In this document: piece by piece, positions 12,664 through 18,366 of the stretch
Layout: the number at the start of each line of letters is the position of its first letter
Position numbering within the stretch: the stretch's first letter is position 1
Virus record (IMG/VR): IMGVR_UViG_2695420646_000009
Length of the DNA stretch: 18,366 bases
DNA from: a virus
Taxonomy: Duplodnaviria > Heunggongvirae > Uroviricota > Caudoviricetes
Reading direction: 5' to 3' (one strand)
Program-made: the position numbers and the translations under genes
Notes under the pieces: generated by a model
Databases searched by the model: none
What the model was told of the DNA's origin: nothing
The model's input: the letters and a program-made list of their open reading frames with translations, nothing else

Positions 12664-12725
12664 ATCCCCCTCACCCCACCAGCCCTGACAAAGTTAAGAC
12701 GCGCCAGGCAGTGGAAAAGCAAATA
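12664..12725 (-). pseudogene. R: Probable 3' remnant (last ~21 codons) of the endolysin gene R, truncated by the transposon
   Basis: The minus-strand frame ending in a TGA that overlaps the Rz ATG (ATGA, the lambda R/Rz arrangement) reads YLLFHCLARLNFVRAGGVRGI*. It loosely resembles the lambda R C-terminus (...AKFKEAGGTVREIDV*). Upstream the frame runs into the transposon IR and hits a stop with no start codon. No intact endolysin gene lies between Rz and the transposon. Confidence 0.45.
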
Positions 12726-12763
12726 GGGGGAACCGCAGAATTCGGAAAAAATCGTACGCTAAG
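12726..12763. repeat. Transposon terminal inverted repeat (mcp-proximal end), 38 bp
   Basis: GGGGGAACCGCAGAATTCGGAAAAAATCGTACGCTAAG, the Tn501/Tn1721-type 38 bp IR ending in the conserved ...ACGCTAAG. Confidence 0.9.
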
Positions 12764-12914
12764 CTAACGGTGTTCTCGTGACAGCTCTTTGACTAGGCTT
12801 TCTAAGGCCATTCTGATAGCCCTGACTTCCTGAAAAGCCATGGCTAAAATTTGTGCGGCTAAAAGGGATAACCGATGGTAAAGTAAGTTATCCCTGTCGA
12901 GATACTGAAAAGCG

Positions 12915-14492
12915 TTATCCTCGTTTTTCCCAAAACTGTTTTGCCAGTTCGCTCAGAGCGCTAGTTAACTGAGCGACAGATTTCGCACTTTGCAAATTAT
13001 TCTGCCCGGTCTGTACATTGGTATCAGCAGCATCGCGTATATTGATAATACTGCGGTTTATGTCTTCACTTACTGCTCCCTGCTGCTCGACCGCAGTCGC
13101 TATTTGCGCGTTCATGTCGGTAATTTCGTTAACGCGTTGGCCAATTCCATCAAGAGCTGTAGCTGCTTCCTCTGCGTGAGCTACACTCGTGTGCGCTTGC
13201 CGACTACTTTGCTCCATGACTGTAACAGCGGATTGCGCTCGCTCTTGTAGAGCGCTGATCATGCTTTGAATATCCGTTGTCGATTGCTGTGTGCGAGCAG
13301 CAAGACTGCGAACCTCATCGGCGACAACAGCAAAACCACGCCCCTGCTCACCAGCACGCGCGGCCTCAATTGCTGCGTTGAGTGCCAACAAATTCGTTTG
13401 CTCGGCGATCCCTCGTATAACGTCAAGAACTTTTGATATCTCGTTACTTTGACCTTCAAGCTCATGAATAACCTGAGTGGCTTGCCTAATTTCACCTTCA
13501 AGGGCAGTGATTGACTGGCTTGTGTGGGCTACCAGACGCTGGCCAGATGCCGTCTCAGTGTCTGCTCTTCCGGCCGCATCTGCAGCATGCTGTGCATTGC
13601 TCGCAACCTCTTGAATGCTTGCCACCATTTGGTTTACTGCCGTTGCTATTTGATCTGTCTCTGCCTGCTGCTCAACTGTAAGTACATTGCTTGACTCAAT
13701 ATCCTTTAGTAGGCCTCGGGTGTGTTCGCTAAGCCGATTTGATGCATCACCTATGCGACCTACTATGGCGCCTGTTTCAGCTTGCATCATTCGTAAAGCA
13801 AACTCTATTTGGCCAAACTCATCGGTGCGCCCAGTGTAGAGGGATTGACTTAATGGGTTATTGGAAATATTCCTGGCTCTTTCAACCAGTCTTCCAAGAG
13901 GAGAGAGAATAGCCAAAACACTAACAGAGCTTAAGCTTCCTGACATTAAAGTGGCTAACAATAAGCTGCTTATTGATGTATCAGTAAGCATGCCGGCAGC
14001 CATTGCGCTTGATATAATACTACCCCATATGAGCAAGAGTATTTTCACGGAAAAGCTAGCAGCCAATTTCGGCCTCGCGGCCTTCCCGCTTCTCAATTGA
14101 GCATATAATTTTTCCGCAGCCAAAACCTGCTCAGGTTCAGGCTTGGTCCTTACAGACTGGTATTCAACAATCGAACCATTCTTAGCTATTGGCGTTACAT
14201 AAGCACTTACCCAATAGTGGTCGCCATTTTTACAGCGATTTTTTACTAGCCCCATCCATGAGCGGCCAGATTTTAATGTACTCCACATATGCTCAAATGC
14301 AGCAGGCGGCATATCTGGGTGTCTTACGATGTTGTGAGGCTGGCCTAATAGTTCTTCCTCAGTGAAACCACTGATTTTAATGAAGTCAGGATTAACGTAC
14401 GTGATATGGCTTTGAGGGGAGGTAGTCGAAAGAATATTGGCATCTTTTGGGAGTTCTAAGTTTCGACCCGTCACTGGTAAATTCTGGCGCAT
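12915..14492 (-). CDS. mcp: Methyl-accepting chemotaxis protein with N-terminal cytoplasmic PAS domain (Aer-like), 525 aa; transposon cargo gene (Tn1721 orfI/mcp-like)
   Basis: N-terminus without signal peptide carrying a PAS-like region (...[73 protein letters not shown]...). Two hydrophobic segments follow ([19 protein letters not shown] and [24 protein letters not shown]), then the MCP signalling domain (...[42 protein letters not shown]...). ATG at 14492 with a GAGG SD. Confidence 0.85.
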
Positions 14493-14639
14493 AAGAACCT
14501 CAAGGGTTGGCTGTTTTATTTTATTGTTTTCGGCATTAAGCCCAATTTCTTGAGCGTTACGATAAAGCTAGCATGGAAACGATAGGTGCAAGCAAGTTAA
14601 GGGTTGCATCGCGCATGTCAATCTAGGCTATACCCTAAC

Positions 14640-15362: not shown

Positions 15363-15365
15363 CAC

Positions 15366-18332
15366 ATGCCGCGTCGCTTGATCCTCTCGGCCACGGAGCG
15401 GGACACCCTGCTTGCGCTGCCGGAAAGCCAGGATGACCTGATCCGCTACTACACCTTCAACGACTCCGACCTGTCGCTGATCCGCCAGCGACGCGGCGAC
15501 GCCAACCGCCTCGGCTTCGCCGTGCAGCTCTGCCTGCTGCGCTACCCCGGTTACGCGCTGGGAACCGACAGCGAGCTGCCCGAGCCGGTCATCCTGTGGG
15601 TGGCGAAGCAAGTCCAGGCCGAGCCGGCGAGCTGGGCAAAGTACGGCGAGCGCGACGTGACCCGTCGCGAGCATGCCCAGGAACTGCGCACCTACCTGCA
15701 ACTGGCCCCGTTCGGCCTGTCCGACTTCCGCGCCCTGGTGCGCGAGCTAACCGAGCTGGCCCAGCAGACCGACAAAGGCTTGCTGCTGGCCGGTCAGGCC
15801 CTGGAGAGCCTACGGCAGAAACGACGCATCCTGCCGGCGCTGAGCGTGATTGACCGGGCCTGCTCGGAAGCCATTGCGCGAGCCAATCGGCGGGTCTACC
15901 GCGCCCTGGTCGAACCACTCACGGACTCGCATCGGGCCAAGCTGGACGAGCTGTTGAAGCTCAAGGCCGGCAGCAGCATCACCTGGTTGACCTGGCTGCG
16001 CCAGGCACCGCTGAAACCCAACTCTCGGCACATGCTGGAACACATCGAGCGGCTGAAGACATTTCAGTTGGTGGACTTGCCCGAAGGCCTGGGCCGGCAC
16101 ATCCACCAGAACCGCCTGCTCAAGCTGGCCCGCGAGGGTGGGCAGATGACGCCCAAAGACCTCGGTAAGTTCGAGCCGCAGCGCCGCTACGCGACCCTGG
16201 CCGCCGTGGTGCTGGAGAGCACCGCGACCGTGATCGATGAGCTGGTCGATCTGCATGACCGCATCCTGGTCAAGCTGTTCAGCGGCGCGAAGCACAAGCA
16301 TCAGCAGCAGTTCCAGAAGCAGGGCAAGGCGATCAACGACAAGGTGCGCCTGTACTCCAGGATCGGCCAGGCGCTGCTGGAAGCGAAGGAAAGCGGCAGC
16401 GACCCCTATGCCGCCATCGAGGCGGTGATTCCCTGGGACGAGTTCACCGAGAGCGTCAGCGAGGCCGAGCTGCTGGCCCGGCCGGAAGGCTTCGACCACC
16501 TGCACCTGGTCGGCGAGAACTTCGCCACCCTGCGCCGTTACACGCCGGCCTTGCTGGAGGTGCTGGAACTGCGCGCCGCGCCGGCCGCGCAAGGCGTGCT
16601 GGCAGCCGTGCAGACCCTGCGTGAGATGAACGCCGACAACCTGCGCAAGGTGCCGGCCGATGCACCCACGGCCTTCATCAAGCCGCGCTGGAAGCCGCTG
16701 GTGATCACCCCGGAAGGCCTCGACCGGAAATTCTACGAAATCTGCGCCCTGTCCGAGCTGAAGAACGCCCTGCGCTCCGGCGACATCTGGGTCAAGGGCT
16801 CGCGGCAGTTCCGCGACTTCGACGACTACCTGCTGCCGGCCGAGAAGTTCGCCGCACTCAAGCGCGAGCAGGCCCTGCCCCTGGCGATCAACCCGAACAG
16901 CGACCAGTACCTGGAAGAGCGTTTGCAGCTGCTGGACGAGCAGTTGGCCACCGTCACCCGCCTGGCCAAGGACAACGAGCTGCCCGATGCCATCCTCACC
17001 GAGTCAGGGCTGAAAATCACCCCGCTGGATGCGGCGGTGCCGGATCGGGCGCAGGCGCTGATCGACCAAACCAGCCAGTTACTGCCGCGCATCAAGATCA
17101 CCGAACTGCTGATGGACGTGGACGACTGGACGGGCTTCAGCCGCCACTTCACCCACTTGAAGGACGGGGCCGAGGCCAAAGACAGGACGTTGCTGCTGTC
17201 CGCAATCCTCGGTGATGCGATCAACCTCGGGCTGACCAAGATGGCCGAGTCGAGCCCCGGCCTGACCTACGCCAAGCTGTCCTGGCTGCAAGCCTGGCAC
17301 ATCCGCGACGAAACCTATTCGGCGGCCTTGGCCGAGCTGGTCAACCACCAGTATCGCCACGCCTTTGCCGCCCACTGGGGCGACGGCACGACCTCATCCT
17401 CCGATGGCCAGCGCTTCCGCGCGGGTGGCCGGGGCGAGAGCACCGGGCACGTCAACCCGAAGTACGGTAGCGAGCCGGGACGGCTGTTCTATACCCATAT
17501 CTCCGACCAGTACGCGCCGTTCAGCACCCGCGTGGTGAATGTCGGCGTCCGCGATTCCACCTATGTGCTCGACGGCCTGCTGTACCACGAGTCCGACCTG
17601 CGGATCGAGGAGCACTACACCGACACGGCCGGCTTCACCGATCACGTCTTTGCCCTGATGCACCTGCTAGGCTTCCGCTTCGCGCCGCGCATCCGCGACC
17701 TCGGCGAAACCAAGCTGTACGTGCCGCAGGGCGTGCAAGCCTACCCGACGTTGCGCCCGCTGATCGGCGGCACCCTGAACATCAAGCACGTGCGTGCCCA
17801 CTGGGACGACATCCTGCGCCTGGCCAGCTCGATCAAGCAGGGCACCGTCACCGCCTCGCTGATGCTGCGCAAGCTCGGCAGCTACCCGCGCCAGAACGGA
17901 CTGGCCGTGGCCCTGCGCGAGCTGGGCCGGATCGAGCGCACGCTGTTCATCCTGGACTGGCTGCAAAGTGTTGAACTGCGCCGCCGCGTGCATGCCGGCC
18001 TGAACAAAGGTGAGGCGCGCAACTCGCTGGCCAGGGCGGTGTTCTTCAACCGCCTTGGGGAAATCAGGGATCGGAGCTTCGAGCAGCAGCGCTACCGGGC
18101 CAGCGGCCTCAACCTGGTGACGGCGGCTATCGTGCTGTGGAACACGGTGTACCTGGAACGCGCCACCCAGGGGTTGGTCGAGGCCGGCAAGCCGGTGGAC
18201 GGCGAGCTGCTGCAATTCCTGTCGCCGCTGGGCTGGGAGCACATCAACCTAACCGGCGATTACGTCTGGCGGCAGAGCCGCAGACTGGAAGACGGGAAGT
18301 TTCGGCCCTTACGGATGCCCGGAAAACCTTAG
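15366..18332 (+). CDS. tnpA: Tn3-family DDE transposase TnpA (Tn21/Tn1721 type), 988 aa
   Basis: 988 aa ORF starting [62 protein letters not shown]..., the length and N-terminus typical of Tn21-subgroup TnpA. Sits downstream of tnpR in the same orientation and terminates inside the terminal IR. Confidence 0.95.
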
Positions 18333-18365
18333 CGTACGATTTTTTCCGAATTCTGCGGGCTCCCC
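18328..18365. repeat. Transposon terminal inverted repeat (tnpA-proximal end), 38 bp
   Basis: Reverse complement is GGGGAGCCCGCAGAATTCGGAAAAAATCGTACGCTAAG, 35/38 identical to the IR at 12726..12763 (differences at IR positions 5-7). The tnpA stop codon (18330..18332) lies inside it. Confidence 0.9.
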
Positions 18366-18366
18366 A

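Follow-up and report, generated by a model that had tools for sequence, protein, structure and literature searches.

The window analysed here is an 18,366-bp stretch of DNA and is the whole record of an Escherichia coli draft contig, CYEC01000042.1 (GCA_001285385.2; locus L010). It carries lysis, head and tail genes of a lambdoid prophage, all of them on the minus strand save for one plus-strand DUF3950/YlcI gene, together with a complete transposon of the Tn1722 type, which lies inside the lysis cassette, upstream of the spanin genes Rz and Rz1, as the original prediction made from the sequence of the window had recognized. The arrangement is very probably an ordinary insertion of Tn1722 into the spacer between the endolysin gene (R) and Rz of a cassette like that of Shiga toxin (Stx) phages, and no known lysis gene would have been removed by it. 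Both the transposon and the type of prophage are known, and an insertion of this sort is routine.

The Transposon

The element occupies positions 12726–18365 (5640 bp) and belongs to the Tn3 family (the “TnAs1 family” in the naming of the Prokaryotic Genome Annotation Pipeline, PGAP). It is bounded by 38-bp terminal inverted repeats, the left one at the mcp end (12726–12763, plus strand) and the right one at the tnpA end (18328–18365, minus strand), which are complementary at 35 of 38 positions. The passenger gene, mcp (12915–14492, minus strand), encodes an aerotaxis-receptor-like PAS-HAMP-MCP protein of 525 amino acids (PF08447, PF00672, PF00015) and is read in the same direction as the late genes of the phage. 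On the plus strand, tnpR (14802–15362) encodes a serine resolvase of 186 amino acids (PF00239, PF02796) and tnpA (15366–18332) encodes a Tn3-family DDE transposase of 988 amino acids (PF13700; PF01526, E = 3e-155). The intergenic region between mcp and tnpR (14493–14801) has divergent promoter-like sites at 14696–14724 (plus strand) and 14649–14620 (minus strand); judging from what is known of the Tn21/Tn1721 group, it is presumably also the location of the res site.

Over the full 5640 bp, the element is 100% identical to many plasmid copies from Escherichia, Klebsiella and Salmonella, which carry the annotations PAS-MCP, recombinase and TnAs1-family transposase. With the 38-bp repeats and the mcp/tnpR/tnpA gene set, this identity bears out the earlier description of a Tn1722-like transposon whose inverted repeat begins at 12726. 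The name itself, that of the 5.6-kb core transposon of Tn1721, is one that we take to apply from the organisation, the size and the repeats, and from what is known of the element (Allmeier et al. 1992). Compared with Tn1722, the element has no differences of its own: it shares the 38-bp repeats, the mcp-tnpR-tnpA organisation, the 5-bp target duplication (seen in sister contigs, see below) and membership of the Tn21 subgroup, and only its location differs, being a lambdoid lysis cassette rather than a resistance plasmid.

Immediately to the left of the element is AAATA (12721–12725), the left copy of a 5-bp target-site duplication, and immediately to its right is a single A (18366), both exactly as first reported; if the insertion is a simple one, the right copy starts with this A. 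The contig stops one base past the right inverted repeat, yet the assembly ran through the entire 5.6-kb transposon, which suggests that the transposon is present as a single copy in the source genome, and that the sequence to its right is repeated there, i.e., in other lambdoid lysis cassettes.

The Sequence Between Rz and the Transposon

Only 62 nucleotides (12664–12725) separate Rz from the left repeat. One frame in this interval ends in an ATGA overlap with the start of Rz and reads YLLFHCLARLNFVRAGGVRGI before its stop codon; it was this frame that the original prediction took for the last 21 or so codons of an R-like gene. However, BLASTP did not align the 21-residue peptide to the cognate lysozyme, nor did the peptide match any PHROG. 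The frame that matches those of relatives is a different one: positions 12671–12724 (minus strand) are the 3′ part (17 codons and the stop codon) of an interrupted open reading frame (ORF) of 43 codons. This part reads ICFSTAWRVLTLSGLVG followed by a stop, and is the C-terminus of a 43-amino acid phage ORF of unknown function (WP_001280929.1; phrog_4906).

Three relatives without the transposon were compared: an intact prophage of O103:H2 (L003), an intact prophage of ML35 (L027) and a degraded copy in ML35 (L001). Identity to the window is 97.4% for L003 and 99.9% for L001. The local gene order in these relatives is class II holin, YdfR (DUF1327), lysozyme (177 amino acids), a 60-amino acid ORF (phrog_1115), the 43-amino acid ORF (phrog_4906), Rz, PerC, YlcI and Nu1. 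Homology of the window to them extends to base 12725, inside the 43-amino acid ORF, and the insertion point corresponds to a site 427 nucleotides downstream of the lysozyme coding sequence. Copies of the phrog_4906 ORF lie at 1904–1990 of sister contig L005, 8973–9106 of L001 and 5974–6105 of L003. The ORF is intact in O103:H2 and ML35 prophage copies, but a 2-bp insertion (cagcatATtagtg), which shifts the frame, is found both in the contigs that bear the transposon and in a transposon-free ML35 copy, which PGAP labels as “frameshifted”. Thus, the transposon struck an ORF that was already broken or dispensable.

The cassette as a whole is of the type found in Stx phages and in Sakai (represented by phage YYZ-2008 and the O103:H2 and ML35 prophages), with the same gene order and 97–100% nucleotide identity. 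In YYZ-2008, the interval between R and Rz is occupied by an Ant gene, whereas here it consists of the phrog_1115 and phrog_4906 ORFs and is interrupted by the transposon (a further difference is that the lysozyme product here has 205 amino acids, see below). Since two small ORFs in the relatives take the place of Ant in YYZ-2008, this interval can be regarded as a variable spacer. The resemblance to the S-R-Rz/Rz1 region of phage lambda is looser. The two have in common the nesting of Rz1 within Rz, the cosN sequence, which is identical, and the genes from Nu1 through A, W, B, C, D and E onward, which are lambda-like. However, in lambda R overlaps the start of Rz, whereas here R ends about 490 bp before Rz, and so the sequence that adjoins Rz is not R. 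The abutment of R and Rz in lambda, which is absent here, was probably the source of the misreading of this sequence as endolysin.

The Lysis Cassette Beyond the Transposon

The window itself ends with the transposon, and the sequence beyond it was therefore sought in other contigs with the same insertion. The left junction is present in two IMG/VR contigs, and the 46-amino acid ORF at the right junction (P0001) has an exact match on at least 29 public contigs. In at least nine inspected contigs (L004/L013, L005/L020, L016–L019, L021–L024), the right repeat is followed by AAATA and then by GCAACCAGC; the right end in contigs with the target duplication reads ...CTCCCC-AAATA-GCAACC.... The whole transposon and both junctions are present in eight of the nine right-junction contigs. 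The contigs that share the insertion are 99.26–100% identical to the window over the overlap; for example, L005 has one mismatch in 6307 nucleotides, and L021 and L024 have none. The suggestion that AAATA is a target duplication, which could not be decided from the window, is thus confirmed in its sister contigs.

Past the duplication, the 5′ part of the small ORF and the 60-amino acid ORF come first in these contigs; a strong hairpin and an open lysozyme gene are next, and then YdfR and the holin. In L005, the products beyond the transposon belong to PF04971 (class II holin), PF07041 (YdfR) and PF00959 (lysozyme). The original prediction had expected AAATA past the right repeat, then the 5′ fragment of an endolysin gene, and a holin gene: the AAATA and the holin were found, and instead of a fragment there was a complete lysozyme gene. 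The statements that the transposon stands in place of most of the endolysin gene, and that the prophage lacks a functional endolysin and would be defective in lysis, do not hold for these near-identical contigs. The remnant aligns to no endolysin C-terminus and a complete lysozyme ORF lies upstream in the near-identical contigs, two findings that the original prediction had itself named as telling against it.

The transposon and one copy of AAATA were removed in silico from L005, and the product was aligned to the transposon-free relatives. The restored sequence matched the degraded ML35 copy without a gap across the junction (99.0% over 2376 nucleotides) and was collinear across the junction with the intact O103:H2 prophage (96.7% over 2648 nucleotides). 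The gap-free junction implies a simple insertion, with a 5-bp duplication and without loss of phage DNA.

The proposed course of events is as follows. A complete Tn1722 would have inserted by Tn3-family transposition into an AT-rich target, AAATA, and duplicated it. The target would have belonged to the non-essential spacer that separates the endolysin gene from Rz/Rz1, and there to the 43-codon ORF that had already been frameshifted, and no phage DNA would have been deleted. The genes for the holin, YdfR and an endolysin of the signal-arrest-release (SAR) type would then be found upstream, outside the contig, with a right flank in the source strain predicted to read AAATAGCAACC, followed by the 60-amino acid ORF and the lysozyme gene. 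On the downstream side are the two spanin genes, then the PerC-family gene and cos, and finally the lambda-like genes for head and tail.

The lysozyme of L005 has a SAR-type N-terminus and an E-8-D-5-T motif, and over its first 177 amino acids it matches the canonical protein encoded by the intact O103:H2 prophage (WP_000992157.1) at 100% identity. In this lineage the endolysin stop codon has changed from TAA to CAA, giving a protein of 205 amino acids with an added tail of 28 residues, QVEYFAENDVGQRGWVTRNPANWQKLSE. The extended ORF lies at 1021–1638 of L005 (plus strand), 99–716 of L004, approximately 9400–9990 of L001 and 5185–5802 of L015. The variant occurs with and without the transposon, and the ML35 copy is flagged as “incomplete” by PGAP. 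An apparent occurrence of the extended lysozyme in an isolated phage was rejected, as the full-length tblastn alignments had read through the stop codon; the annotated gene of YYZ-2008 encodes the normal 177 amino acids. Directly 3′ of the lysozyme gene, within the late operon, is a terminator-like hairpin (L005, 1643–1675, plus strand, in the sense of the late transcript), which has a 14-bp stem and, on folding, −29 kcal/mol for a 75-nucleotide segment (z = −4.1).

One of the contigs with the right junction, L016 (CYDL01000035.1), has it together with the lysozyme gene and a truncated YdfR gene at approximately 4600–20141, inside a multiresistance region that includes strA/strB with a dfrA insert, sul2, tetA-tetR, blaTEM and fragments of Tn3-family elements. 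Only the tnpA-end half of the transposon in L016 matches the window (16580–18366 and 15668–18366). The set of resistance genes resembles that described for GI3 of O104:H4 (PMC4326458), a paper that mentions no lysozyme or lysis context, and the comparison was dropped. The CYCE01 genome belongs to an atypical enteropathogenic E. coli (aEPEC) lineage (PMC7289442).

Spanins, cos and the Structural Module

Downstream of the transposon, in the direction of late transcription, both spanin genes are intact, as had been stated. Rz (12196–12663, minus strand) encodes an i-spanin of 155 amino acids that covers positions 1–125 of the 126 in PF03245; Rz1 (12258–12443, minus strand), which is embedded in Rz, encodes an o-spanin lipoprotein of 61 amino acids, with a full-length match to PF06085 and with a signal sequence and a lipobox cysteine in its translation. 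Between Rz and the next annotated gene is a very A/T-rich region of 450 bp (11740–12195) with a conserved ORF of 46 amino acids and unknown function (phrog_2157; 11973–12113, minus strand). This next gene, located between the spanins and cos, encodes a PerC-family (Pch-like) regulator (WP_001303878.1; 11419–11733, minus strand). It lies about 1 kb downstream of the transposon and in the same direction as mcp, and an identical protein is encoded by prophages and by plasmid-borne remnants. The DUF3950/YlcI gene follows at 11113–11337 (plus strand).

Upstream of Nu1 is the cosN sequence GGGCGGCGACCT (10894–10905, minus strand), which is an exact match to that of lambda and has lambda-like flanks. 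The genes predicted on the contig include those for Nu1, GpA, gpW, portal, S49 protease, D-like and E-like proteins, FI, FII, Z and U, and the order along the window is tail T, G, V, U, Z, then head FII, FI, E, D-like, S49 protease, portal, W, A and Nu1. The exact cosN, the Nu1/A terminase and the lambda-like head genes show that this is a lambda-type cos-packaging module, and it sits 1.8 kb downstream of the transposon insertion in the direction of the late transcript.

Consequences for Late Transcription and Packaging

If the insertion is a simple one, its only plausible effects would be on Q-antiterminated late transcription, which would have to read through 5.6 kb, and on the length of the genome to be packaged via cos. 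The holin and endolysin genes lie upstream of the insertion, hence even full polarity would not block their expression. Rz/Rz1, PerC and the virion genes would need transcription across the 5.6 kb, in the sense direction for mcp and the antisense direction for tnpR and tnpA.

A simple insertion could nevertheless be functionally inactivating, either by being polar on Rz/Rz1 and the virion genes or by making the genome overlong for cos packaging, so that cells would lyse without releasing infectious particles. This outcome is possible, although on balance unlikely. In its favour, the late operon is lengthened by 5645 bp at a point that precedes cos and the structural genes; about 3.5 kb would be read antisense to tnpR and tnpA and thus be untranslated; and folding gives a 10-bp hairpin followed by UUUU after mcp. 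Furthermore, lambda packages approximately 78–105% of its genome length, and the extra 5.6 kb could exceed a limit of the lambda type. Against this, Q-modified RNA polymerase resists intrinsic as well as Rho-dependent terminators, over more than 20 kb, and the strong hairpin after the lysozyme gene in the native cassette means that the downstream late genes must already depend on Q antitermination. A terminator scan found no strong intrinsic terminator inside the transposon on the strand of the late transcript. Strong polarity of the transposon on the downstream late genes is predicted to be unlikely, and we infer that late transcription mostly passes through it.

A related case also argues against inactivation: the P1-like phage-plasmid pTZ20_1P has a complete Tn1722 flanked by 5-bp direct repeats and is still inducible (PMC6906374). 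In a collection of 50,697 phage records, the transposon end was found in P1-like phages only, including Salmonella phage SJ46 and a P1 variant, and no lambdoid phage record carrying the transposon was found. The P1-like carriers resemble the window in having the same transposon in a temperate phage genome, but they are plasmid prophages with pac/headful packaging, whereas the window is a segment of a lambda-type cos phage, with a tighter limit on length.

The Right Flank and the Join to the Structural Module

Several observations weigh against a simple insertion into an otherwise ordinary prophage. With the window ending one base past the right repeat, no more than that base is visible of the source genome's own right flank. 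From 11342 to 18366, the last A included, the window is 100% identical to S50 pA (L007, L011; NZ_CP010239.1), an IncFIA/FIB/FIC plasmid of E. coli S50 that has two copies of a block composed of Tn1722, Rz, PerC and an EspS-like gene. The left junction in S50 pA is the same, and its right flank (AAGACGG...) is without a target duplication; a rearranged, duplication-less right flank also accompanies the identical left junction in L014 (TAAAGG..., next to traJ). Neither closed chromosomes nor phage records were found to have the insertion: a search of 5,426 complete E. coli genomes with the left junction gave no match at a query coverage of 80% or more, and neither junction was in the 50,697 phage records. 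Finally, the lysozyme of this lineage is 28 residues longer through its changed stop codon, which might affect it. Among 72,556 plasmids the left junction was found in S50 pA only and the right junction in none, and the predicted right junction, TTCTGCGGGCTCCCCAAATAGCA, had no matches in a set of species-representative genome contigs, which is a set without these strains; IMG/VR and NCBI draft contigs did bear out the prediction. The lack of a duplication at the right flank in S50 pA implies a secondary rearrangement, and duplication of the block, after the original insertion.

The window is a hybrid. Positions 2500–11786 are 100% identical to the intact ML35 prophage, whereas 11787–12725 have 27 differences from it, one indel relative to the ML35 remnant and 100% identity to S50 pA. 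The sequence type switches within a 445-bp stretch that contains the PerC gene (11342–11786) and is identical in the contexts of intact prophages and of plasmids and remnants. Where the context is that of a remnant, what comes after Rz and PerC is an NleH pseudogene with an EspS-like gene, and not cos and Nu1. Among the contigs with the transposon, L018 has the EspS-like remnant context, and the window, L013 and L019 continue into Nu1. A clean patch of the remnant type, with the transposon, in a prophage of the ML35 type was considered and is unconfirmed; the holin side of L005 differs from both ML35 copies.

It is rather unlikely that the transposon sits in a degraded cassette remnant (holin to Rz, PerC, NleH′ and the EspS-like gene) on an IncF plasmid or an integrated plasmid, and that the contig was joined to cos, Nu1 and the head genes during assembly, across a shared repeat. 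The switch of sequence type within the shared 445-bp stretch, the fact that, among closed molecules, only an IncF plasmid has the left junction, and the junction of the transposon to the EspS-like gene in L018 all point in that direction. However, the window, L013 and L019 are independent draft assemblies, from two or more projects, and all three run unbroken into DUF3950 and Nu1; assemblers normally break at unresolved repeats rather than misjoin them. Moreover, lambdoid modules commonly exchange by homologous recombination. Between the window and L004, the 73 mismatches all fall within the terminase genes (8544–10329) and 10330–18366 is identical, a mosaic of the kind that recombination among lambdoid prophages typically leaves. 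In view of the agreement between the three assemblies and of this typical mosaicism, we judge true recombination to be about three times likelier than an assembly artefact as the origin of the join to the structural module. A specific version, namely that the cassette with the transposon arose in a phage remnant on IncF virulence or resistance plasmids of atypical EPEC-like E. coli and recombined via the PerC stretch into a lambda-type cos prophage that is otherwise intact and has kept its capacity for induction and packaging, is doubtful.

Quite improbable is a right flank that has been rearranged in the source genome, as in S50 pA and L014 (e.g., by a second transposition, by IS26 activity, or by a resolvase-mediated deletion or inversion), such that the holin and endolysin genes no longer adjoin Rz and the structural genes. 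The identity to S50 pA, whose right flank also starts with A, the break of the contig exactly at the end of the repeat, and the existence of such right flanks in at least three places are consistent with it. However, all of the rearranged versions lie in the PerC-EspS context of plasmids and remnants, whereas L013 and L019, the other contigs that link the transposon to DUF3950 and Nu1 and in which the right flank is visible, have the AAATA duplication followed by phage DNA. From these sister contigs, we infer that the right flank of the source genome is the same as theirs. Scarcely credible is the replacement of most of R, with about 21 codons left, no endolysin and no lysis: R does end at the start of Rz in lambda, a frame ending in ATGA does exist here, and the window shows nothing beyond the right repeat, but the peptide from this frame does not align to the cognate lysozyme and matches no PHROG, the 62 nucleotides are collinear with the 3′ end of the 43-amino acid ORF some 430 bp downstream of the lysozyme gene in transposon-free relatives, and near-identical contigs have a complete lysozyme gene, YdfR and the holin after the transposon, with gap-free excision.

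Implications

For annotation, the simple insertion of Tn1722 into the spacer between R and Rz means that the sequence adjacent to Rz in cassettes like those of Stx phages is not endolysin, and that it would be wrong to count a transposon at this site as a knockout of lysis. One insertion allele of Tn1722 (99.3–100% identity) is common to an IncF plasmid, to remnants in multiresistance regions and to contigs with a lambda-like virion module, in E. coli of the aEPEC type, and this allele is a marker of exchange between plasmids and prophages. Should the prophage have remained active, it might offer a route by which a phage spreads a Tn3-family transposon. If the cassette was recombined into an active prophage, the result would be a lambdoid vehicle for a Tn3-family transposon, potentially including derivatives that carry tet(A) or KPC; mcp and, by read-through, Rz and the PerC/Pch-like regulator would then come under new transcriptional input.

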